32,000 nucleotides of DNA from Nostoc punctiforme PCC 73102 (GTDB lineage Bacteria > Cyanobacteriota > Cyanobacteriia > Cyanobacteriales > Nostocaceae). Position numbers and translations under genes: made by a program. Positions 5,669 through 22,827 of the stretch are shown here, piece by piece. The notes below the pieces were generated by a model. The model was not told where the DNA came from and did not search any database. It worked only from the letters and a program-made list of their open reading frames with translations. Numbering within the stretch: position 1 is the first letter of the stretch; each line of letters opens with the position of its first letter. The stretch lies in NCBI RefSeq assembly GCF_000020025.1, contig NC_010628.1, forward strand, positions 4,380,001 through 4,412,000. Reading direction: 5' to 3'.

Positions 5669-8600
5669 TCAATAATGAACCTCTAAGGCGAAATTCACTG
5701 TATATGGTTCCTCTAATGATTGCTGATTACTAGCTTTGATCGCATCTAGATAGCGACGTAAATACAACAGTTGTTGGGAATTGGGACGATAGGTGAGGCT
5801 CCCTTGTTTTTCAAAAAGTGGTGCTGTGGCGATCGCCTGATAGTCAGGATTTTCTTGTGAACTCTTGGTTAGCCAAGTTGAATCTATAACTGAAGGTATC
5901 AATCCCGAAGGCAGTTCACCTTCCAAAAAAGCTAGCAGGCGTTGCTGACAAGTGCGAGTATTGATTCCACGACCCTCAAATAACTGGATAACTTCACCGA
6001 AAGATAAGGGACGATCTGGTAGCAGCCGCAGCAATTCGGTAAATAAGAAATAATCAGTGTACTGTTGTCTGGGTATATCTAATATCTGGGGATGTAAAGG
6101 CAGCATCGCCAAACCATAAGCAACCCGGCTGCAATTAGGAGCGCCATTTTCGCCGAGATATAAATCTTGAATAATCTTGGCGCTGGGGAGTTTCTGCTTT
6201 AACCAACGGTTTACTGTCCCAACACAAGCCACACCACCAGTCAGGATAGCTTGATTAATAGATTCTGTCGGGATACCACGAGCTACCAATAATTTGTTGA
6301 GTTCTCGATTCAGGCGGCGCACAAAGGGGATAAATACCTGGCTTTCTAAGTCTCGTCGCTGCAAAATCCACTGCTGATCGGCTAATTCCAGGGTAAAAGA
6401 TTCTTGGTGCTGCAAAATCAGCTTCAGAGCTAGTGCCGCATCTAATACCGCCTGTCCCAGTAAAGAACTTTCTAGACGCTGCTGAAGACGAATCCGTGCG
6501 GTAATATCTGGTTCTCCGACTCTCGGTAGTTCTAATTCTTCCAACCCTAAACTCTGCCAGCGCATTTGGTCTAAACCGGGAATTGACGGTTGCCATTGCC
6601 AAGGATTACTGCTGGTAGTTTTGCGTAGGCGTAGCTCGCCGCAGGCATCGCTTTGTGTTTCTAGGCGTGATTGCCGAGATTTAGGCGGTAATAGCAACTG
6701 GCAAATAATATCTTGTTCAATTCCCTTGCCAGCATAAGCAAAACTATGGAGCATGAAATCATTGTATGTCAATTGTGGTAAGCTTTCTGGGACATCAACT
6801 AGCAACATTTCTGTGGCAGTTGTCCCAATGTTGATTACCAGAGTGTTACCAACAATCGGATGTTCGCTGGTTTTTGCCGGATGAGAACCTTGACGTTGAC
6901 TTAATTTTACTTGCTCACCGTTAGCAGCATTGAGTTCTGGGAGTAAACTAGCGATCGCTTCTTCTACAAAAAAGACTTGCTGCGGATGTTGGATGAGTTT
7001 ACTGGTCAGTAAAGCTTCCCGCACATTAAAGCGGTATTGTTCCGACCAGCTAGATGGACAGGTGCAAATCACACCAGCAATATTATTGATAATCTGCGGA
7101 AAATCTTGTTCGCCGATCCCAACAGCAGCAGCCATTAAACTAGGGGTGGTACAAGTTTTTTCGGATTTGAGGGTTAATAGTAGTTTAGAGAGCGATCGCA
7201 CAACCCAAATTAAAGGTCCTGCCGAAAATTCATTTAATTGCAAAACAGGTTCCCATTTTTGCCGTTCACTCTTATAGGGAATGGCTACTTGTAAATAGGG
7301 CTTCAACTGCGCCGAGTAGAGGTTATTTGTTGTCGAATCTGCTGTTGATTTACGTGTTTTAGGAGTAGCCGACTGGTCAGGTGCTTTATCTTGAGCAACA
7401 GCCGCAGGTGCTGTTTGCTCATGGACTTCTATACTTTCACTTTCACCCTGGGGTATAGAAGCTGTAGGAAGATAAACCTCTGTTGGCAAACGAAATGATT
7501 CCTGGAAGGAACTTGTTCCCGGCGGATTTTCTGCTGACCAGTAAATAGGATGTACAACAAAAGTCGAGCGATTTAATAATGCGGCAGAAATTCCGGTTGT
7601 ACCTAAATCAATTCCTAAATACCAAACTGGTTCTAGAACATTGAGCGAAACTTCTGGATTGTTGATGGAGTTGGAAATTGAAGAGAAAGAACTGTCTTGA
7701 ATAGGAGTTGTGATTTCCTGTTTTTCTTCAGTTTCTACCTGGGTAACTGTCAAACTTGATAAACCCGCAGTTGAGGTATTTTCTGTTTGCAGCTCAGGGT
7801 AAATTGTAGGGATTGTGTCTTGAGTTTTATCAATTAGTTCTGAGACAATATCCAAATTGGTAGCTGGCTGCAAATCAGAATTTAGCTGCCGATCAAAATT
7901 AGCCAAATCTCGATCTAATTGCTGCAACTGTTCTTCATCTAAAGAAATATCAGGTACAACTGGAGTCTGGTTTAACTCAACAGAAAGCAAGTTTTCTTGT
8001 GGTGAGGCAGCAATGTAGTTATCTAAAAAAGGGTCTGGCGGATCATTATTGCTTAATATTCCCGGTGGAGCGATACCTTCGGTGGGCTGCTCTACGAGAG
8101 GCTGCGCGTAGCTTGCTTCCCCGTAGGAGTATGCCAAAGCAATTTCTGCTGCTTTCGGAGTAACTGGTGCTGTACTTGTGCCATTATCCACAAAGGATGA
8201 TACTTCCAGCAATTCCTGTTCACTACTGGCATCAGTCAATAGATCAGTTAGGGTATTAATTGTATCAACACTAGCTGGCTGAGTGTCTAGTTGCGTGGGG
8301 GAACTATCTGTTTGTGGTGTAGAAAAACTCAGAGGCGAATCTAGCTCAGTATCCTCTTCAAAAAATAGTTCTTCCTGTGGCTTTGATAATGAATCTGTGG
8401 CTTCTACTAAAGTCTCTTGAGCTGAAATACTTGTATCTGGTGTCACAACCGCAGAATCAACGTTTTGAGGGACAGATGGACTCTCAGCGATTTCTAATGT
8501 TGATTGGGAGGCTGTGGAAGCAGATAAGTCATTTGTCGATACATCAAGACTTGGGTTATTAACATCACCAATACCAAATAAACTGGCATAAAGTTGATCT

Positions 8601-9739
8601 ACTTCATCACCAACTAATGCTAATGCAGAAACATCTTGCAGTAATTCGGTCGGGTTTTCGGAAGATTGAGATGAGTCTATACCAAGCTGCAACAGCACTG
8701 CATCCAGATCCTCTGTGAGCGTAGTATCCTGTTGCTCAGAATTAATTGTGAGTGGAGATGAAGTTTCTGGCAGGATTTGCTCTAAGAGTTGAGATGCAAC
8801 TTTAGGAGCGATCTCGGCTGGGTCAGGCAATGATGATATATCAGATTCTACCCTTAGCAAATATGGCGGGGAAATAGGGGATTGTTGCTGTAAATGCTGG
8901 GTCAAATTGTTGAGAAAGCTGGCCATCAACTGTTCGCCTTGCATACCCTTGCTATGCATTCTTGCCAGTGCTTGCGACAGTGATTCGTAATAAGTATTAA
9001 TATTGCGCTGTAGTGCCTCAAAGACTACATTCACAGTTCCATCTAGTGATAATAGGCGTTGATCCAACTCCCTAGCTAGCTGGGTTAACTGCTCCACACG
9101 GTCTACTGATTCTAATAAAGGTTGAGTTGCAGAAGTTGCGTGATTAGTTGCTTCTGGAGAAATAACGGAATTTTCCCCAGGTTGTGCTAACAGTGGCGTT
9201 ACAGTTGGCACCAGCCGATTCATGAGTACCTGTAAAAACTCGGTAATCATTTGATCTTGGTTTGTCAACTGTTGCGCTAAAGAGTAGTTTTGCAATCGCC
9301 TTTGCTCTAGTTGCCTAATTTCTTGCATGAGAGTGGCTCGCTCTTGCAATAGCCCTTCTAATTCCGATCGCAATGGCTGAATCAAGCTCGAAAATTCACT
9401 TTTTAATTGTTCGGCTGCAACAGGACTCTGTTCCTGATTGGATTCGAGCGGCGGTAGGGGATACTGGCTATAACCTCGATCAAGAAATTTTGTTAATAAA
9501 GGCGATGACTCCGCCAACGCCAAGGGCGAACGCGGTTCTTCGGAAGAATCATTTGGAATATCGCTCTCTAATGCTTCTTTTTCTTGGAGCCTCACCAAGA
9601 AGTTGCGAATCCGTTCTAGAACTTCTTTAGGTTCCTGCCCCTGACCAGGTAGAAATCTAGACAAGCGCTTGCCACCACTGGCAAGTAAGTTGTCAATGTC
9701 TGCGATCAGCTTTTGAATTTCATCTGCACTGGAAGTCAC
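5669..9739 (-). CDS. Large multidomain protein: N-terminal coiled coil, long acidic S/T/Q/P-rich low-complexity region, C-terminal divergent Hsp70/actin-like ATPase
   Basis: An uninterrupted 1356-aa ORF. The C-terminal half carries Hsp70-like motifs: phosphate-1 WYLGIDLGTTG, phosphate-2-like LVINIGTTATEMLLV, adenosine-like AILTGGVACVGTVNRWLKQ, and VAYGLAM. The first ~290 aa are rich in heptad-like L/E/Q/R segments. Confidence 0.75.
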   Translation of the reverse strand: MTSSADEIQKLIADIDNLLASGGKRLSRFLPGQGQEPKEVLERIRNFLVRLQEKEALESDIPNDSSEEPRSPLALAESSPLLTKFLDRGYSQYPLPPLESNQEQSPVAAEQLKSEFSSLIQPLRSELEGLLQERATLMQEIRQLEQRRLQNYSLAQQLTNQDQMITEFLQVLMNRLVPTVTPLLAQPGENSVISPEATNHATSATQPLLESVDRVEQLTQLARELDQRLLSLDGTVNVVFEALQRNINTYYESLSQALARMHSKGMQGEQLMASFLNNLTQHLQQQSPISPPYLLRVESDISSLPDPAEIAPKVASQLLEQILPETSSPLTINSEQQDTTLTEDLDAVLLQLGIDSSQSSENPTELLQDVSALALVGDEVDQLYASLFGIGDVNNPSLDVSTNDLSASTASQSTLEIAESPSVPQNVDSAVVTPDTSISAQETLVEATDSLSKPQEELFFEEDTELDSPLSFSTPQTDSSPTQLDTQPASVDTINTLTDLLTDASSEQELLEVSSFVDNGTSTAPVTPKAAEIALAYSYGEASYAQPLVEQPTEGIAPPGILSNNDPPDPFLDNYIAASPQENLLSVELNQTPVVPDISLDEEQLQQLDRDLANFDRQLNSDLQPATNLDIVSELIDKTQDTIPTIYPELQTENTSTAGLSSLTVTQVETEEKQEITTPIQDSSFSSISNSINNPEVSLNVLEPVWYLGIDLGTTGISAALLNRSTFVVHPIYWSAENPPGTSSFQESFRLPTEVYLPTASIPQGESESIEVHEQTAPAAVAQDKAPDQSATPKTRKSTADSTTNNLYSAQLKPYLQVAIPYKSERQKWEPVLQLNEFSAGPLIWVVRSLSKLLLTLKSEKTCTTPSLMAAAVGIGEQDFPQIINNIAGVICTCPSSWSEQYRFNVREALLTSKLIQHPQQVFFVEEAIASLLPELNAANGEQVKLSQRQGSHPAKTSEHPIVGNTLVINIGTTATEMLLVDVPESLPQLTYNDFMLHSFAYAGKGIEQDIICQLLLPPKSRQSRLETQSDACGELRLRKTTSSNPWQWQPSIPGLDQMRWQSLGLEELELPRVGEPDITARIRLQQRLESSLLGQAVLDAALALKLILQHQESFTLELADQQWILQRRDLESQVFIPFVRRLNRELNKLLVARGIPTESINQAILTGGVACVGTVNRWLKQKLPSAKIIQDLYLGENGAPNCSRVAYGLAMLPLHPQILDIPRQQYTDYFLFTELLRLLPDRPLSFGEVIQLFEGRGINTRTCQQRLLAFLEGELPSGLIPSVIDSTWLTKSSQENPDYQAIATAPLFEKQGSLTYRPNSQQLLYLRRYLDAIKASNQQSLEEPYTVNFALEVHY
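8104..8132. repeat. Short dispersed repeat copy lying inside the 1356-aa CDS
   Basis: GCGCGTAGCTTGCTTCCCCGTAGGAGTAT is near-identical to 15999-16027 (GCGCGTAGCTTGCTTCACTGTAGGAGTAC) and 29911-29939 (ACGCATAGCTCGCTTCTCCGTAGGAGTAC). Confidence 0.65.
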
Positions 9740-15965: not shown

Positions 15966-16053
15966 CGTAATTCGTAATGATGCTCTCTACGATACGTTGC
16001 GCGTAGCTTGCTTCACTGTAGGAGTACGAATACTCACTAACGTAATTCGTAAT
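15966..16053. repeat. Dispersed repeat copy flanked by 13-bp direct repeats CGTAATTCGTAAT
   Basis: CGTAATTCGTAAT occurs at 15966-15978 and 16041-16053. Between them lies the repeat GCGCGTAGCTTGCTTCACTGTAGGAGTAC (15999-16027). Confidence 0.6.
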
Positions 16054-16614
16054 TAAGGCATAAGCCAAAACTCGCACAGTTTAAAGTTTAATGGCAACGA
16101 TGCGAATTTTTCGATCATCTGTTGTCCAAGTTCCTTGTTAATACAGTGTTGGTCTCAGATATTCTTCAACGACGGGAATTACTTGTATTTGTTGCTCGCC
16201 AGAAAGTCCTGTTAAAAAACTGCTGGCAGACACCTAAATCCAGTTTGCCATACCTGCTTCTGTTTCTGCTAGAGGAGTTGAATGAGCAAAAAGCATGGCA
16301 TGAATTCGAAGCATTGCCGTTCTTGGAGACTGGCGTACTCACCAATACTAGGGAAATACCAATTTAGGTCTTTGTGCAGAAATATAAAATGTTTCTAAGG
16401 GGCTTTCCAAAGCTGTGGCGATGTGAGACAGAAAAAAGCTGAAAATCTTATAAAAACGTACTTTTAGTTTCAGTATCTTCTCAAGATTCAATTCGAATTG
16501 TTATAGAACTTAATAGAAGGTATTTGGTTAAAACTAAATAGTTTCATTTGATACAAATGCTAATGCTTTTTGGGTTGAATTGTCCTTAAATTGAGTGCTT
16601 CTCTACAGCGCGAA

Positions 16615-17874
16615 TTACTCGTCTTTATTTGTCCATTGCCTCCGTCCCTTCGGAGTGAGTGCCCCTTCCTTAAACAAATCCGAGAGGTCGTTGGTGTTCG
16701 GTGAGTTTGCATCACCCAAAAACTTGCCGTCTGGTGCGTATACACCGAAGAGTTCCTCCCAGCTCTTCAGGTCGGACGAGTGGGTATAATTTACGAAGCT
16801 TTCATAGGCGTTACCCTTGGCCAGAGGTGAGATCACGATTTCCTCTATGGTGTGGCTAAAGTCATTCTGGTTAGTACCTTCAGTCTCATCCCACCAGATC
16901 ACAATCGCGCCACCGTCCTTGTAAGCAGCCGAGGACATAATCTGCGGAATTATCTTGGAAAGAAAGTTGTCACCCTGTGCAATTGCGGCCAGATCGCCTG
17001 TGTAATGCACCCCATTATAGTCAAAGCCATCTTTCAACGCAGTGTGTGAATCATTGAATTGGTCTGGTGTAATCAGGGTATAACTAGCAACTTTATTATG
17101 AGCAAGGTCTTCTTCTAATTGTTGCAATGGTGCATATTTAGATGCTAGGGGGTTTGCTGGTGTTGGGTCGTTACCGCCGTTGGTGTCAGTAAAAAACAGA
17201 TGACCATCGTGTTTGGTAGCAAAATTATATTGATGGCTACCGTTGTAGGGGTTAGTGTAATCAGGTGATGTACCACTGAAGCTGCTCAGGGGGACAGTCC
17301 ACTGGTCTTGAGGTAGAACTGTGTTGGTAAGTAGACCATTAGCATTTTTTGCTAGGTTAATGTCTTCTTGGTAGGATTTCCAAGAGATACCAGCCCGATC
17401 GAGTAAAGCACTGAGATGGAGTGTAGTATTTTGATTAGTGCCCCCTGGATTTTTGAAAGGGTCATTATCGTTAAGCACGCCGAAGTTATCGCCGGCTTCT
17501 TGCCAAATATAGTTTGGCTCGGATGGGTGGATGCTGGGGTTCTTGCCAGACGGTGTAGCTAGGACGTTATGGTAAGCACCAGCGTAGGAGACCTGAGCGG
17601 CATTTGGATTTCCGGGGGTTATGAGGCTGTTCTGATAGGGGGCTGCGGGACTGCCGAATATCTGGTTGGGTGCTTTTGTGTCACTGCTTGGTTGCGTGAA
17701 GTTATGGTTTTCCATATCTATGACGAAGATATGTTTAAGGGTTCTGCCTCTTTCGACCCTTTGGCCATTTTCGAGCCCTTCAATGTTTTGCGCCACTGCC
17801 GCCTGTGCGCTTAGAAGGCTCCCAGCCAGAAACGCAGCGGGAAGAAGCACCCACTTAAATAAATGTATTTGCAT
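16615..17874 (-). CDS. Secreted phosphoesterase-family protein (PLC/acid phosphatase AcpA-like, PF04185-type)
   Basis: A signal peptide (MQIHLFKWVLLPAAFLAGSLLSAQAAVAQ) and an N-terminal block LKHIFVIDMENHNF resembling the VVIxxENRSF signature. The C-terminal acidic blocks IVIWWDETEG fit this fold. Confidence 0.6.
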   Translation of the reverse strand: MQIHLFKWVLLPAAFLAGSLLSAQAAVAQNIEGLENGQRVERGRTLKHIFVIDMENHNFTQPSSDTKAPNQIFGSPAAPYQNSLITPGNPNAAQVSYAGAYHNVLATPSGKNPSIHPSEPNYIWQEAGDNFGVLNDNDPFKNPGGTNQNTTLHLSALLDRAGISWKSYQEDINLAKNANGLLTNTVLPQDQWTVPLSSFSGTSPDYTNPYNGSHQYNFATKHDGHLFFTDTNGGNDPTPANPLASKYAPLQQLEEDLAHNKVASYTLITPDQFNDSHTALKDGFDYNGVHYTGDLAAIAQGDNFLSKIIPQIMSSAAYKDGGAIVIWWDETEGTNQNDFSHTIEEIVISPLAKGNAYESFVNYTHSSDLKSWEELFGVYAPDGKFLGDANSPNTNDLSDLFKEGALTPKGRRQWTNKDE

Positions 17875-18113
17875 TGATTTTTACAAAATCAGGTAAGCCT
17901 CACAAAAATAGTGGTATTGGTTTAAGCACTAGCTATTAAAGCTTTAAGGAAATATTAACAGGTTAGTTATTTGGTGATTTAGAAAAGCCGCTCTGCTTTT
18001 TTGAGCGAAAGTACTGAGTTCCATTAGCGGTAGCGGGGCGTTTAGCCTGGGTTTCGTCTTAGAGTTAAAAGACTGCCCACTTTAATTTGCTCAGAACTCA
18101 GTAGTGAGTGCGG

Positions 18114-20741
18114 TCAAAGTCCCAATGGGCCACGAGTTACGCCCAATTGATTTTGCAGCTTCAACTCGCGCCATAGTTGGGAACCTGTAATTTCACCCTG
18201 CAATAATTGACGATAGCGATGTATTATTTTAGCCACTTGCTCTGGAGTTTCATTTATAAATTCAATACGAAAATGATGTAATCCCAGCTCTATGAGACGC
18301 TGTACGTACTCTGCTCCAGTTTGAGCGGTGCCGTTGAATACAGTATTGCGGCAACCTACATCTGCTTTGAGGACATGTTCGCTGCCTACACGATCTTTTA
18401 ATTTGACTTCCTGCTTTTCACAAGGTCGCCCACAGTTAGTATGATCTGTACCTGTCGATAGAAAAGCACAGAATACGCAGTGTTCCATGTGGAACATCGG
18501 TATATGTTGATGGATTGTTACCTCAAACCACTGGGGTGGACAACTGGTGAGCAGGTCTTGTAGTTGGGCAATATTCAGGTCATAAGATGCCGTCAGGCGT
18601 TCTAAAGCAAAGCGTTGCTGAAAATAGTCTGCTGTTAAGGGATTAGCAACGTTGAGCGAAAAATCTCCAATACAACGGTCTTGAGCAAAGAATCGCAGTT
18701 GGTCATAGTTCCGTATCAGATAGCCATCTGCTTCACAGGCACGTACCTGCTGCAAAATCCAATTTTCACCCGGTTTAGTAATTCGGGGCGGTGCAACCCA
18801 GATTGTGGGGAGTGCTGAATTATCAGTTAAAAGTGAAGGATTGTCTGCTTTGTTTTTTTGCTGTTGTTGGCGAACCATTTGCACCGCTTCTCGGTAGGCG
18901 CGGGGATCTTCAAATTCACAGTATAGGGTTTCAATACCAGCTTTGAGGGCGGCTTGGAGTTGCTTGAGGTTTCGTACTAAGACGATCAGTGAAGGAGAAG
19001 AGAGGGATAAGGAAGATGATGAGGGGAGTAAGTCTTGGAAAGAGACATCAGAACGTAACTGCCAACGTTTAGGTTGACTTCGCAATTCTTCCAACTGCGC
19101 CACAATTTCGCGCCTCATCCGGTTCAACTCACTTACGGGCAGCATAAGAGAAGTGCTGAGGTGGTTGGTTAGTTTTTCCAAAACGAAAGGCGTGTTACCG
19201 AGACGACCGAATTGTTCTTGTAAACGTTCTGTATCTAAGGGTTTGGTGTGCGCCTCCACCAGAGAAATTGTAGATTCTATCTGGACAATATTACCGAGTC
19301 GATCGCGGGCGATCGCAATTAATGGCTGACCGATTTCTCCATAAACCTCTACATCAATGGGACGCTGAAATTGTGGGTTCTCGCCTGCAAAACTTTGACG
19401 CAGTTGCTTCTCGAGTTCGGGATCGCTGGTTTTCCAAATGCGATCGCCTATATGCACACGGCGCAGGTTCAAGTCATTTCGCCCAAAGGTCAACATAGCT
19501 TCTTTACCCTTGGACACCACAGCATAAACCCGGCCGCCTTCTTCCTTCGCTTCTGGATGACCGCAGTCAAATACAATTCCATCCCCTGGTTTTACAGGCG
19601 CTTCCAATTTTACTGTCACCTGTTCGTTGTGAATGCGGGTAACTTCACCTAAATAAACCCCACGTTTTTTACCAAAGCGGGCGTGAACTAGTTCCTGATT
19701 ATTAATCCCGCCAAACCAGCCCGTGTAGAGTCCGCGAGAAAATGCCATCTCTAAGTTGTAGTGTTCTTGATCTAATTGACCTCTCCCCCAACCCCTCTCC
19801 GTTGGCGTAAGCCTGCCGTTAGGCATAGTGGAGAGGGGAGCCTTTATTCCCTCTTCCCTACGAGAGGAGACTAGGGAGTTAGGTCTTGCCAATTCAGTCA
19901 TCACTCCATCCAGGGCTTGCCGATAAACACGGGTGACATTAGCAACATACTCTGGAGCTTTTAGGCGACCTTCAATTTTGAGACAAGTTACTCCTGATTT
20001 CACCAAATCGGGCAAAACATCTAACCCTGCTAAATCTTGAGGACTGAGTAAATATTTGCGTTCTTTTAAATTTACAACTTCCCCATCGGCGATTAACTCG
20101 TAGGGCATCCGGCAAGCTTGGGCACATTCACCTCGGTTAGCAGAACGTCCGCCTAAAGCCTCGCTAGTCAAACACTGACCGGAATACGCCACGCACAAAG
20201 CACCGTGAACAAAAACTTCCAAGGGCAGCGAAGTTTCTTGTTGGGCAATCTGCTGCTGAATTTTATTGATTTCCTGAAGAGAACATTCACGTGCCAGCAC
20301 CACTAATTGACAGCCGAGGGACTGAGCAAATTCCACCCCAGCCGCACTAGTGATGGTCATTTGGGTAGAAGCATGGATGGGAAAATCGGGCGAGAGGTGA
20401 CGGATGAGACGACATATTCCTACATCTTGGACAATGACGGCATCTACACCTGCGGCAATAATTGTGCGGAGATATTGCTGTGCTTCTGCTAGTTCTTTGG
20501 GAAATATTAGTGTGTTGACAGTAACATAACCCTTTACACCGCGACGGTGCAGAAATGTCATCAATTGAGGTAAGTCTGCCTCAGTAAAATTTTCTGCCCG
20601 CATTCTGGCGTTGAAGCGATCCAAACCGAAGTAAATCGCATCTGCCCCATTTTCCACAGCAGCTTTAGCACATTCCCAGTTACCTGCTGGTGCGAGTAGT
20701 TCGGGACGTTGAAGAGAGAGTTGGGGGCGATCGCTTTTCAT
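18114..20741 (-). CDS. Peptidase U32 family protein (long form, tandem U32-like halves)
   Basis: 875 aa with an N-terminal U32 core (PELLAPAGNWECAKAAVENGADAIYFG, VTVNTLIF, VQDVG, EVFVHGALCVAYSGQCLTS, RSANRGECAQACR) and a second Cys-rich block near the C-terminus (MEHCVFCAFLSTG...CGRPCEK). Confidence 0.85.
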   Translation of the reverse strand: MKSDRPQLSLQRPELLAPAGNWECAKAAVENGADAIYFGLDRFNARMRAENFTEADLPQLMTFLHRRGVKGYVTVNTLIFPKELAEAQQYLRTIIAAGVDAVIVQDVGICRLIRHLSPDFPIHASTQMTITSAAGVEFAQSLGCQLVVLARECSLQEINKIQQQIAQQETSLPLEVFVHGALCVAYSGQCLTSEALGGRSANRGECAQACRMPYELIADGEVVNLKERKYLLSPQDLAGLDVLPDLVKSGVTCLKIEGRLKAPEYVANVTRVYRQALDGVMTELARPNSLVSSRREEGIKAPLSTMPNGRLTPTERGWGRGQLDQEHYNLEMAFSRGLYTGWFGGINNQELVHARFGKKRGVYLGEVTRIHNEQVTVKLEAPVKPGDGIVFDCGHPEAKEEGGRVYAVVSKGKEAMLTFGRNDLNLRRVHIGDRIWKTSDPELEKQLRQSFAGENPQFQRPIDVEVYGEIGQPLIAIARDRLGNIVQIESTISLVEAHTKPLDTERLQEQFGRLGNTPFVLEKLTNHLSTSLMLPVSELNRMRREIVAQLEELRSQPKRWQLRSDVSFQDLLPSSSSLSLSSPSLIVLVRNLKQLQAALKAGIETLYCEFEDPRAYREAVQMVRQQQQKNKADNPSLLTDNSALPTIWVAPPRITKPGENWILQQVRACEADGYLIRNYDQLRFFAQDRCIGDFSLNVANPLTADYFQQRFALERLTASYDLNIAQLQDLLTSCPPQWFEVTIHQHIPMFHMEHCVFCAFLSTGTDHTNCGRPCEKQEVKLKDRVGSEHVLKADVGCRNTVFNGTAQTGAEYVQRLIELGLHHFRIEFINETPEQVAKIIHRYRQLLQGEITGSQLWRELKLQNQLGVTRGPLGL
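19780..19885. repeat. Palindromic dispersed-repeat block lying inside the U32 CDS
   Basis: CCTCTCCCCCAACCCCTCTCC ... GGAGAGGGGAGCC (arms CCCCTCTCC / GGAGAGGGG) is followed by CTCTTCCCTACGAGAGGAGAC, which resembles CTTCTCTACGAGACGC at 29895-29910. The block translates as SSRREEGIKAPLSTMPNGRLTPTERGWGRGQ. Confidence 0.55.
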
Positions 20742-20805
20742 CAGATTTAGGGTTAAGTAGCACCATAGTGATTTTATCGAAGTTGGTGGGGGATGGTGCG
20801 ATCGC
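20727..20805. repeat. 79-bp direct repeat, copy 1 (covers the first 5 codons of the U32 gene plus 64 bp upstream)
   Basis: Base-for-base identical to 21427-21505. Both ends are GCGATCGC (HIP1). Confidence 0.95.
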
Positions 20806-20948
20806 TATCTCCTCCGTGACAATTTCATTCCTCTTCAGAGATAGCAAAACGGCTCGTTGTGATCGCCTTTGCCAAGTGAGATAAATTAAGCGATCGCTTC
20901 CTCAGCTTAATAGACAATAATCACTATGGCGATTTAGATTGAGGGTAG

Positions 20949-21164
20949 ATGCCCAAGAAAATTAGAGAGTTAAAAGCAATTTTGTTGAAAGCCGGATTTG
21001 TATATCGTCCTGCAAAAGGTAGTCATACATTCTGGACTCACCCACTTATACCTGATGAACCAGTTACCATTGCTGGAAAAGATGGAGACGATGCACCCCG
21101 ATATTTGGAAAAGCAAGTCAATCGTGTTTTGAAGCAACTAGGAGAAATAGAGGAAGAAGAATGA
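20949..21164 (+). CDS. hicA: Type II toxin-antitoxin system toxin, HicA family (mRNA interferase)
   Basis: 71 aa. MPKKIRELKAILLKAGFVYRPAKGSHTFWTHP...ITIAGKDGDDAPRYLEKQV matches the HicA/YcfA pattern (the K-x-x-E-L block and G-S-H). There is a 4-bp ATGA overlap with the next ORF. Confidence 0.85.
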   Translation: MPKKIRELKAILLKAGFVYRPAKGSHTFWTHPLIPDEPVTIAGKDGDDAPRYLEKQVNRVLKQLGEIEEEE

Positions 21165-21391
21165 ACGATCGCTACAGTATGGTAATTCAATGGTCAAATG
21201 AGGATAATTGCTACTTGGTACACTTACCAGAATTTCCTTGGCAGCAATTCCATACTCATGGCAAAAGTTATGAAGAAGCCGCTAAACATGGACACGAAGT
21301 GATTGAATCTCTAATTGAATGGTATGGAGAACAAGGAAAACCTTTGCCAGAGCCAATTACTTTTCCTCAAAAACCGTTAAAAGTAGCTTAA
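21161..21391 (+). CDS. hicB: Type II toxin-antitoxin system antitoxin, HicB family (short form, no obvious DNA-binding tail)
   Basis: 76 aa. YSMVIQWSNEDNCYLVHLPEF...THGKSYEEAAKHGHEVIESLIEWYGEQGKPLPEP is the HicB N-terminal (UPF0150-like) pattern. It is translationally coupled to hicA. Confidence 0.8.
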   Translation: MNDRYSMVIQWSNEDNCYLVHLPEFPWQQFHTHGKSYEEAAKHGHEVIESLIEWYGEQGKPLPEPITFPQKPLKVA

Positions 21392-21426
21392 ACCTTTTTT
21401 GAAGTATGTAGGCATAGCCCATCGGA

Positions 21427-21505
21427 GCGATCGCTTTTCATCAGATTTAGGGTTAAGTAGCACCATAGTGATTTTATCGAAGTTGGTGGGGGATGGTGCG
21501 ATCGC
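21427..21505. repeat. 79-bp direct repeat, copy 2
   Basis: Identical to 20727-20805 and offset by exactly 700 bp. It includes a second copy of ATGAAAAGCGATCGC (minus strand), the U32 start. Confidence 0.95.
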
Positions 21506-21702
21506 CTTTTTTGGCAAACGCTTCTTCAATAGCATTCAATACCGCTTTAATTTGCAGCACATCTTGGCAAGTTTCCACCCAAAATAAATCGACACCACCA
21601 TCGGACAGCGCCTCTGCTTGTTCAGCAAAAATAGGTTTCATGCTGTCAAAGTCAATATATCCCAAGGTAGGAAATTTGGTTGTCGGGCCGATAGAACCTG
21701 AC
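21506..21702 (-). pseudogene. metH: Orphan internal fragment of cobalamin-dependent methionine synthase (homocysteine S-methyltransferase domain)
   Basis: The minus-strand translation [67 protein letters not shown] matches the MetH N-terminal Hcy-binding barrel pattern (GSxGPT, GGxDLxxxET, D.L..KAA). It has a stop immediately upstream and is truncated downstream at a HIP1 site, leaving about 65 codons. Confidence 0.65.
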
Positions 21703-21828
21703 TGATTCTACACATAGTCAGATGAAATATTTTCGCTAAATTTCTTATCTTGGGATTACAGCTTAGAGTTGCCACTCCGTTCAGCTCAAAGATGGAAAAA
21801 ACACCAGGTGTATAACTTGAGTCCTACT

Positions 21829-22458
21829 ATGGATTTAAATTCTTTGTTCAATCTAAATACATTTATTGAATTATTACTGGGGATTAGTTTGAGCGCGGCG
21901 GCTGGCTTTCGAGTATTTGTACCACTGCTAGCATTGAGTATGGCTTCAGTTTTTGGACATTTAGATTTGCCAACTAACTTTGATTGGGTGGAAACACCTC
22001 AAGCTGTAATTGTATTTGCCGTCGCTTGTTTGCTGGAAATTATCGGTTATTACATTCCTTGGTTGGATCATCTGCTGGATATTGTTGCCACTCCTGCGGC
22101 ATTTATCGCCGGGACAATCGTAACAGCATCTGTTGCTCCAGAGATGAATCCACTGGTGCAATGGACGTTAGCTTTAATTGCAGGTGGTGGAACCGCAGGA
22201 TTAACTCAGGGATTAACGAATTTATTGCGGATAAGTTCTGCAGGGGTTTCTGGTGGATTAACCAATCCAGTTGTGTCAACCATTGAGTTGGTCATCGCAA
22301 TCGGACTGTCTGTGCTGGCGCTAGCTTTACCAGTGGTAGCAGGAGTGATTGTGATTGGTTTTCTAATAATAGCTATTCAAAGACTCTGGAATTTCTTCTT
22401 GAATAAACCATCTTCTCAAATTAACGAAACCGTCTCTCCATCAAGAGAATTGGGATAA
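21829..22458 (+). CDS. DUF4126-like integral membrane protein
   Basis: Four to five TM helices and an AAAGFRVFVPLLAL block that I associate with DUF4126. The track begins at TTG 21769; ATG 21829 (MDLNSLF...) is preferred. Confidence 0.6.
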   Translation: MDLNSLFNLNTFIELLLGISLSAAAGFRVFVPLLALSMASVFGHLDLPTNFDWVETPQAVIVFAVACLLEIIGYYIPWLDHLLDIVATPAAFIAGTIVTASVAPEMNPLVQWTLALIAGGGTAGLTQGLTNLLRISSAGVSGGLTNPVVSTIELVIAIGLSVLALALPVVAGVIVIGFLIIAIQRLWNFFLNKPSSQINETVSPSRELG

Positions 22459-22483: not shown

Positions 22484-22592
22484 GCGTAGGCGTAGCCCGC
22501 ACTTCGACAAAGCTCAGTGACCATCGTAGACATCGCAACTATAAAGCGATCGCGTAGTCTTCGGGTGTGTTAGCGCGAAAGCGTAACGCACC
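22484..22592. repeat. Cluster of nested dispersed palindromic repeats
   Basis: GTAGCCCG...TCGTAGACATCGC is related to 29963-29985 (ATAGCCCGTGTCGTAGGCATCGC) but is interrupted by ACTTCGACAAAGCTCAGTGA. GGTGTGTTAGCGCGAAAGCGTAACGCACC (22564-22592) is the reverse-complement relative of 24395-24422. Confidence 0.6.
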
Positions 22593-22713
22593 TTTGATAC
22601 TCGTGAATGAGTCTTTGAACTCCGTTAACGAGTCTTTGAACTCCGTCGATGAACCTCAAAGCTTTGTGAATAAACCTCAAAGCTTCGTTAACCAGTCTTT
22701 GATACTCGTGGAT
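22588..22713. repeat. Tandem array of six 21-bp units of two subtypes (order A A A B B A)
   Basis: The units are GCACCTTTGATACTCGTGAAT, GAGTCTTTGAACTCCGTTAAC, GAGTCTTTGAACTCCGTCGAT, GAACCTCAAAGCTTTGTGAAT, AAACCTCAAAGCTTCGTTAAC and CAGTCTTTGATACTCGTGGAT. Subtype A has the core CTTTGA and subtype B has the inverted core TCAAAG. Confidence 0.85.
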
Positions 22714-22827
22714 GAGTGAATGTTATTGCGCTTCAACACCGCTTTACAACTGGCATTCATTAGCGTAACGGTGTCTTATTTGCTTATGAGCAGGAACATT
22801 TGGCATTAGTGGAAGCTGTTAAAAGCG

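Follow-up and report, generated by a model that had tools for sequence, protein, structure and literature searches.

An old leader duplication around hicAB in Nostoc punctiforme, probably joined at HIP1 and recently homogenised by gene conversion

Introduction

Short direct repeats in bacterial genomes can evolve in concert by gene conversion, and recombination between them can delete the DNA that they enclose. In homology-facilitated illegitimate recombination, which follows natural transformation, a single homologous anchor is combined with a microhomology joint, and microhomology-mediated template switching (MMBIR/FoSTeS) leaves a short templated insertion at a rearrangement junction. The octamer HIP1 (GCGATCGC) has been linked to site-specific as well as illegitimate recombination in laboratory constructs or plasmids (Robinson et al. 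1997; Akiyama et al. 1998, as summarised in PMC4390886 and PMC5861425). A boost to transformation has also been reported for it and its function is still treated as unresolved (PMC4390886; bioRxiv 10.1101/2024.09.10.611283), while SDR5 elements are described as inserting inside HIP1, between nucleotides 3 and 4 (Elhai et al. 2008, as summarised in PMC4390886). Our literature search, which was not exhaustive, found no published report of natural rearrangement junctions at HIP1. Here we describe a locus of Nostoc punctiforme PCC 73102 in which a hicAB toxin-antitoxin (TA) pair, upstream of a U32-family peptidase gene, stands between two perfect 79-bp direct repeats that begin and end in HIP1. 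The locus lies within a stretch of 32,000 nucleotides (NC_010628.1, positions 4,380,001 to 4,412,000), hereafter the window, whose numbering is used throughout.

The initial annotation had read the repeats as the possible product of a Campbell-type single crossover that brought in hicAB on a circular DNA, or of a HIP1-anchored duplication. Our comparison with related genomes makes it likely that the locus is an old HIP1-joined duplication of the U32 5' end, recently homogenised by gene conversion, and not a fresh hicAB insertion.

Results

The repeat unit is the native 5' end of the U32 gene

The two copies are identical at 79/79 positions, their starts lie 700 bp apart and each carries HIP1 at both ends, which bears out the initial description in full. 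The homology continues for another 3 nt (GGG/GGA), giving 82 nt with a single mismatch. The 63-nt core of the repeat occurs twice in the window against 0 expected from shuffles, and HIP1 occurs 30 times in these 32 kb against 0.2 expected, 5 of these within 20727-21505. As had been proposed, the 621 bp between the copies hold an overlapping hicA-hicB pair and a 143-bp spacer (20806-20948), to which a 35-bp tail has to be added. Since U32 lies on the minus strand and starts at 20741, copy 1 corresponds to its first five codons from the ATG (MKSDR) and the 64-bp leader upstream.

A scan with the U32 protein, taking one genome per species, gave 80 loci (individual sequences carry L-numbers below). 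According to BLAST and a repeat profile, the leader unit is single and placed at the U32 start in most Nostocaceae loci, with weaker matches as far as Calothrix and Fortiea and a conserved core, TAGCACCATAGTGATTTTATC. A metagenome scan with this core returned 21 contigs; the core lies beside a U32 N-terminus in 19 of them and two core copies are present in only one. Because the core stays at the U32 start, the unit is a conserved U32 leader. Within the sequences scanned, the metagenome contigs and the window, a dispersed repeat family (MITE/REP-like) was ruled out by the 19/21 contigs beside U32 and two copies only in the window; the possibility raised in the initial annotation, a dispersed multi-copy repeat with no bearing on hicAB, therefore did not hold. 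The repeat is the native 5' end of U32 and copy 1 is its working leader. As separate observations on this gene, U32 has shrunk to a short remnant with the leader retained in L112, L113 and L114 (about 8040-8310 in L112), and an identical ATG-to-ATC change is present in both leader copies of L114.

An artefact, in which consensus polishing evened out two short repeats or assembly wrongly duplicated the 700-bp unit, has no direct support, and we regard it as extremely improbable. Independent assemblies and metagenome contigs (L007-L010, L013) have the same two-copy layout, and a 79-bp repeat is spanned by ordinary reads. Logan short-read contigs that encode the window's exact U32 protein (L001-L006) end 30 nt into the repeat, as expected of a k=31 graph at a true repeat. 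L006, alone among them, passes through all 79 bp. No Logan contigs encoding the exact HicA were returned.

The duplicated layout and hicAB are old

L007 is an 8.33-Mb JGI contig that shares 98.6% identity with the window across 12.2 kb, L008 is GCA_037619055.1, and L009 and L010 are metagenome contigs. All four share the order U32, copy, spacer, hicAB, tail, copy and metH' (a methionine synthase fragment). L013, a Nostoc metagenome-assembled genome at 6.9% U32 nucleotide distance, has three copies in the order copy, tacAT, copy, hicAB, copy, metH'. The copies differ within each of L007-L010, through single-nucleotide polymorphisms, a 4-bp GGAA indel and an 11-bp deletion (copy 2 of L008). By this comparison the duplicated architecture is old and would have arisen before the window's lineage split from that of L013. 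Relatives with a duplicated layout and diverged copies were what the initial annotation had itself named as speaking for an ancient event, and with five such sequences its claim of recency falls.

The hicAB pair also has a long history beside U32. In L092 the order is U32, a single leader copy, the same native flank as in window 20806-20850, hicAB, HIP1 and Uma2. In CP026681.1 (L116) and N. commune NIES-4072 (L118) it is U32, island, hicAB, Uma2, ABC, AKR, BFN, Lum_binding, M23 and LipB. The pair is syntenic in L092, L115/L116 and L118, with a single leader copy in each, and in most genomes that have hicAB no leader copy adjoins it. The nucleotide distances of hicAB and U32 to the window are 0.002 and 0.014 for L007, 0.016 and 0.046 for L008, 0.034 and 0.069 for L013, 0.063 and 0.110 for L020, and 0.129 and 0.202 for Mojavia (L025). 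All close HicA homologues that were looked up sit in the same syntenic island, L007-L010 encode an identical HicA there, and nothing in the contexts of these homologues or in their divergence, which tracks U32, marks hicAB as mobile. Synteny, divergence that scales with U32 and the single-copy genomes together argue for an old, vertically inherited hicAB, and the L092-type layout argues that copy 1, spacer and hicAB are the ancestral arrangement. On these sequence comparisons hicAB and the preceding 143 bp are an ancestral U32 neighbour in Nostoc and not a newcomer.

A recent Campbell-type crossover upstream of U32, between the chromosome and a circle carrying hicAB and 79 bp of homology, with the HIP1 ends marking the exchange, would explain why the repeats are perfect, why a close relative (L011, see below) has one copy and no hicAB, and why no integrase or insertion sequence (IS) lies nearby. 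It is hard to reconcile with the diverged-copy layout in the five relatives, with a syntenic hicAB whose divergence tracks U32 across Nostoc, with the identity of copy 1, spacer and hicAB to the single-copy layout of L092, with the nested position of L011 and with a copy 2 that is tied to metH' and not to hicAB. Nor was an identical cassette, which the initial annotation had proposed to look for, found elsewhere: the 621-bp insert had no near-identical match in a plasmid collection (the phage collection was not searched), where only distant hicAB pairs turned up, on plasmids of Gloeothece and Acaryochloris and with no more than 68.6% identity. We consider this explanation largely refuted and very improbable.

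The duplication is, as had been stated, far too long for a transposase target-site duplication: it measures 79 bp, the ends of the hicAB cassette showed no inverted repeats, and the window open reading frames (ORFs) that were tested included no transposase. Integrase or transposase domains were likewise absent from the window ORFs tested and from the called genes of L007 and L008. The idea that a TA module had entered without integrase or IS thus stands in so far as none is associated with hicAB, and fails in that hicAB did not newly enter.

Copy 2 marks a synteny breakpoint with a HIP1 joint

In other Nostoc, hicAB-Uma2 is followed by an ABC-AKR-BFN-Lum-M23-LipB block. In the L007 genome this block lies 4.26 Mb from the U32 locus, beside DUF4126 and an intact 1175-aa metH, and in Nostoc LEGE 12450 (L011) ABC likewise adjoins an intact metH. 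In the window, copy 2 is followed by metH', which is 89% identical to the intact metH of L120 and L121, and by a DUF4126 gene with 89.6% identity to the one adjoining the intact metH in the L007 genome. At about 89% identity to the intact locus, metH'-DUF4126 is a diverged (~10%) paralogous duplicate, and copy 2 stands exactly at the breakpoint. Copy 2 thus sits at what these alignments identify as a clade-specific synteny breakpoint, and copy 2 with all that follows it would be a novelty of the window's clade. Divergence of metH' from the window fragment amounts to 6-14% in L008, L011 and L013, with a frameshift in L008, and the two intact metH copies are only 1.9% apart; metH' has the appearance of a neutrally decaying pseudogene. 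At the reciprocal junction, beside ABC, we sought a leader copy or a remnant of Uma2 or hicAB and found none in L120 or L121.

The distal joint of copy 2 can be followed to both of its parents. The metH' fragment reads ...AKKGDR and then passes directly into the leader, and at the codon where it stops the intact metH of L120 and L121 has gccaaaaaagGCGATCGCcgtccg (AKKGDRRPLMVS), placing the truncation exactly at metH's own HIP1. The leader's distal HIP1 is in turn present in all single-copy loci. With both parental HIP1 sites visible, the leader/metH' joint reads as a HIP1-to-HIP1 fusion. At the start of copy 2, L008-L010 have GATATCGC in place of the first HIP1 (...atcggaGATATCGC is retained), and GATATCGC is the end of a small inserted repeat. 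Since the relatives have GATATCGC here, the window's perfect HIP1 at 21427 is probably secondary and restored by conversion. The HIP1-anchored duplication offered as an alternative in the initial annotation fits the joint between copy 2 and metH' and fits the proximal one less well.

Probable gene conversion and concerted evolution of the leader copies

At the rate of metH' about 5 differences would be expected between the window's leader copies, and 0 are observed. In L007 and L009/L010 one position tells the paralogues apart, with atcGaag in copy 1 and atcTaag in copy 2. Both window copies carry the G, an indication that copy 1 converted copy 2. Because the copies of the relatives have diverged, the perfect identity in the window indicates recent gene conversion as its likely cause. 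The window and L007 are separated by three events in each leader copy despite 98.6% identical flanks.

Leader copies that flank a tacAT-like cassette behave in the same way. They share lineage-specific variants within L023, L025, L013 and L114, distances between copies are 1-14% within a genome versus 7-25% between same-position copies of different genomes, and paralogues share derived states that are absent from orthologues. Concerted evolution of the leader copies is thus general.

Strong purifying selection could in principle have kept both copies identical with no conversion, for example if both were functional promoter-leaders. The leader core is conserved out to Calothrix and Fortiea, and a TAAAAT hexamer resembling a -10 element can be read by eye in the sense strand; a promoter/terminator scan returned nothing on the leader sense strand and an Rfam search of 20300-22000 no relevant match on the leader. 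Copies that differ by three events each between genomes as close as the window and L007, and a copy 2 with an 11-bp deletion in L008, fit poorly with such constraint, and selection alone does not yield the lineage-specific changes that paralogues share in L023, L025 and L114. We give this explanation little credence.

Recombination between the copies would also account for L011 (Nostoc LEGE 12450), in which a single leader copy is joined directly to metH' without hicAB and whose two alignments with the window overlap on exactly the 79 bp. In a neighbour-joining tree of U32, (L013,(L011,(L008,(window,L007)))), L011 is nested, and the hicAB-copy-metH' junction is common to L013 and the window. 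Given this nesting and the shared junction, the simplest reading of the L011 site is a deletion, in which a crossover of one repeat with the other would have taken out hicAB and a leader copy. The empty site that the initial annotation had proposed to look for in relatives does exist, as a single copy without hicAB; its nested position makes loss a simpler account than an ancestral absence.

HIP1-bounded modules in a TA and defence island

Junctions at HIP1 recur in the island. Gene content varies by genome past the leader's distal HIP1, the second leader copy always starts at the HIP1 in U32 codons 3-5, and hicAB is present or absent between an upstream segment (S, Table 1) and Uma2 (L022, L025, L092 vs L017, L114). 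In L017 and L114, S and one HIP1-like octamer are directly joined to Uma2 without hicAB, and in L013 the leader copy's distal HIP1 is fused at the left-edge HIP1 of the hicAB module.

A tacAT-like pair, composed of a TacA1 antitoxin (PF08681, E=7.5e-18) and a GNAT toxin, adjoins the leader in L013, L015, L020, L021, L023, L025, L057, L114 and L118, and is bracketed by leader copies in L013 (2887-4015), L015, L021, L023, L025 and L114; three leader copies each occur in L013 and L114. Since tacAT distances track those of U32 (r=0.94), this bracketing is also likely to be old. The hicAB and DUF3226-AAA modules, each bounded by HIP1, are in opposite order in L114 and L025. Further defence-like genes upstream of U32 (L114 7500-12100; L118 10559-13088; L014, L016) encode DUF3226 with an AAA ATPase, an HD protein, Mrr_cat, and HEPN_RiboL-PSP with a ParA-like ATPase, besides putative XisH/XisI-like proteins judged by sequence reading. 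The region upstream of U32 is a hotspot of TA and defence modules in Nostoc.

Such a region might point to a dedicated capture system, in which the HIP1-bounded leader serves as docking site for a HIP1-specific nicking or recombination activity encoded elsewhere and an integron-like array results. Two different TA cassettes bracketed by leader copies, the three copies in L013 and L114, the constant start of second copies at the HIP1 in U32 codons 3-5 and the different order of HIP1-bounded modules in L114 and L025 all suit this proposal, as do the links of HIP1 to site-specific recombination and small-repeat insertion in the literature (PMC4390886). It is nonetheless unlikely in our view: tacAT and hicAB diverge in step with U32, so that each bracketing may be one old event followed by concerted evolution, the hicAB of most genomes has no adjoining leader copy, and leader copies were not found away from U32. 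The 79-nt unit forms no attC-like fold, pairing only through its two terminal HIP1 octamers, and no linked recombinase gene was found.

Other features of the locus

Coordinates are collected in Table 1. The HicA domain match scored 47.9 bits against a cut-off of 27, and the translation contains a KGSH motif. The gene directly downstream overlaps hicA by 4 nt (ATGA), and its weak match to HicB_lk_antitox (21.2 bits against a cut-off of 27) is below the Pfam threshold; a homologue of its product on a Gloeothece plasmid is annotated HicB, and at 76 aa the protein is too short for a DNA-binding domain. NCBIfam returned no family for HicA or HicB. Seven nucleotides after copy 1 (tatctcc) were considered as a tacAT remnant, which was ruled out as they are native leader flank in L092, L012, L014 and L016.

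The small repeat of the tail, GTAGGCGTAGCCC(R)TCG, is dispersed in the window at 21408-21424, 6625-6641 and 22486-22502 (3 matches against 0.02 expected). It also splits the U32 HIP1 (codons 3-5) in L015 and L093, as GCG-taggcgtagcccatcggagat-ATCGC, between nucleotides 3 and 4, adding 21 nt in frame at the U32 N-terminus. At window 22484-22536 another HIP1 is split in the form GCG-insert-ATCGC, the insert exceeding that of the corresponding L008 site by 24 nt, which suggests a nested insertion. Tandem 21-nt repeats (CTTTGA.C.CG..A.GAGT) at 22592-22720 lie in an ORF for a repeat protein (ESLNSVNESL...), and their copy number differs in L011 and L013. On the other side of U32, a phosphoesterase gene (16615-17874) is missing with its flanks (about 15972-18120) in L011 and L013, and a 1356-aa ORF without Pfam match (5669-9739, minus strand) is conserved in position in L113.

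Table 1. Features around the leader repeats, in window coordinates
Feature	Coordinates	Strand	Evidence or remark
U32-family peptidase gene, 875 aa	18114..20741	-	ORF; Pfam Peptidase_U32 E=5.7e-90 and DUF3656
Repeat copy 1, native U32 5' end	20727..20805	-	HIP1 at 20727-20734 and 20798-20805
Native leader flank (tatctcctccgtgacaatttcattcc...), then S segment (...cctttgccaagtgagataaattaa), found ahead of hicAB in other Nostoc	20806..20889		Homologous sequence in L092, L012, L014, L016, L100, L025, L112, L017
HIP1, left edge of hicAB module	20890..20897		Compare L013, L017, L114
Promoter-like site 5' of hicA, TAGACA-18-TAGATT	20911..20940	+	Consensus scan only, weak; no evidence of function
hicA toxin gene, 71 aa	20949..21164	+	PF07927 E=1.4e-12
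Short hicB-like antitoxin gene, 76 aa	21161..21391	+	PF15919 E=3.3e-4, below threshold
hicAB tail	21392..21426		Small dispersed repeat GTAGGCATAGCCCATCG at 21408-21424
Repeat copy 2, paralogous U32 leader and codons 1-5	21427..21505	-	HIP1 at 21427-21434 (probably restored by conversion) and 21498-21505 (shared with metH')
metH', dead methionine synthase fragment, homocysteine-binding domain, about 69 codons	21498..21712	-	PF02574 E=7.5e-10; MetH alignment
DUF4126 gene, paralogous copy that travelled with metH'	21829..22458	+	PF13548 E=8.4e-55

Discussion

From an evolutionary point of view the locus seems to have a history in several steps. Copy 2 would have arisen once, before the window and L013 split, in a rearrangement that put a duplicated piece of the DUF4126-metH locus where the ancestral neighbours on the right (Uma2-ABC and beyond) had been, and in which HIP1 octamers were the points where DNA ends joined. 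We infer that the joining was illegitimate, microhomology-guided recombination at HIP1. One route would be template switching, with the leader close by as template for an insert at the junction. By a second route a block of U32, leader and hicAB would have been imported into an L011-like chromosome that already had the leader-metH' junction, with an illegitimate right-hand joint. Later a non-reciprocal exchange from copy 1 to copy 2 would have made the window's copies identical, crossing-over between the direct repeats would have removed hicAB and one copy in Nostoc LEGE 12450, and the same process may act on the leader copies around the tacAT-like cassette in other Nostoc.

Several points weigh against this history. 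The data fit either route to copy 2, and import would mean that hicAB did after all re-enter a chromosome, accompanied by one of the repeat copies, in a weakened version of the idea in the initial annotation. The proximal joint, at which the hicAB tail meets copy 2, passes through the small inserted repeat and is less than a clean fusion of two HIP1 octamers. On the L007 contig both copies of DUF4126-metH5' have the same, direct orientation, which a single inversion does not give; a single inversion with duplicated breakpoints was set aside for this reason. The nested position of L011 comes from a single-gene neighbour-joining tree, which inter-strain recombination could mislead. Gene conversion is deduced from the pattern of differences and not directly observed, and simple conversion does not explain why two leader haplotypes, I and II (GGAA present or absent; C or G), swap position between L007 (5775-5857, 6479-6556) and L008 (5779-5857, 6482-6550), genomes only about 5% apart in U32. 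The island's BLAST alignment breakpoints do favour joining at HIP1, with 44/353 falling there against 7.3 expected (about 6x), but this count repeats orthologous breakpoints, and conserved octamers may pin the ends of alignments. HIP1 is also absent from other indels close to U32, the upstream edge of the phosphoesterase indel lying in 'aattcgtaat' repeats.

Taken together, an old HIP1-joined duplication that was later homogenised remains our preferred history, and the perfect repeats do not record a new route by which TA modules invade a chromosome, which removes a false lead. The locus is a natural record that bears on HIP1 function, with one joint traced to both parental sites and HIP1-bounded modules that are present, absent or reordered between genomes, and it fits proposals that HIP1 has a role in recombination or transformation (PMC4390886; bioRxiv 10.1101/2024.09.10.611283). 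It also suggests that repeats of about 80 bp, 0.7-1 kb apart, have been homogenised repeatedly in Nostoc. A bolder possibility, to which we attach only a small chance, is that the HIP1-bounded U32 5' end is a recurrent, integrase-independent docking site at which HIP1-guided cutting and joining captures and shuffles TA and defence modules, duplicating the leader each time. If this were true HIP1 would take a direct part in building accessory-gene arrays, and the Nostoc island could be seen as the HIP1-driven counterpart of an integron.

Integron arrays and chromosomal TA-defence islands resemble the locus in their variable small TA or defence modules beside a fixed gene, with a repeated unit between some of them. 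They differ from it in several respects: here there is no attC-like structure, no intI-like gene was seen among the tested window ORFs or the called genes of relatives, the cassettes are immobile on the sampled time scale and the repeat is the 5' end of the adjacent gene. With Campbell-type integration and its att duplication the locus shares direct repeats around a small accessory module and an existing one-copy empty site; unlike in such integration, no integrase was found, the module is syntenic and vertical, the arrangement is of long standing and the empty site lies nested in the tree. The likeness to SDR5-type repeats of Nostocaceae, as they are summarised in the literature, lies in the 21-27 nt elements that split HIP1 as GCG-...-ATCGC, both at window 22484-22536 and in the leader copies of L015, L021, L093 and L114. 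An element of the same kind occupies 21408-21424 in the hicAB tail. We assign these elements only by where they insert and by their dispersal.

The origin of copy 2 could be compared with homology-facilitated illegitimate recombination, with U32 as sole homologous anchor beside a microhomology joint, or with MMBIR/FoSTeS, where a short insertion templated less than 1 kb away appears at a rearrangement junction. By analogy either might have operated, and the microhomology would in this case be HIP1, a hyper-abundant 8-mer. As in the summarised reports of HIP1 recombination, joints fall inside GCGATCGC, and segments flanked by HIP1 occur in some genomes and are missing from others, where a single octamer stays behind (hicAB beside Uma2 in L022, L025 and L092 vs L017). 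Unlike the cases in those reports, the junctions here are natural and chromosomal, and one is traceable to both parents (leader HIP1 and metH HIP1), although one joint of copy 2 is not clean. The parallel with concerted evolution and deletion at short repeats is that paralogues are closer than orthologues and that one lineage lost the intervening DNA and kept one copy. The locus is in this sense a modestly novel natural example of HIP1-associated joining combined with concerted evolution of very short repeats, distinct in that the unit is only about 80 bp of start codon and leader and that conversion would keep a spare U32 start pointing antisense into hicBA.

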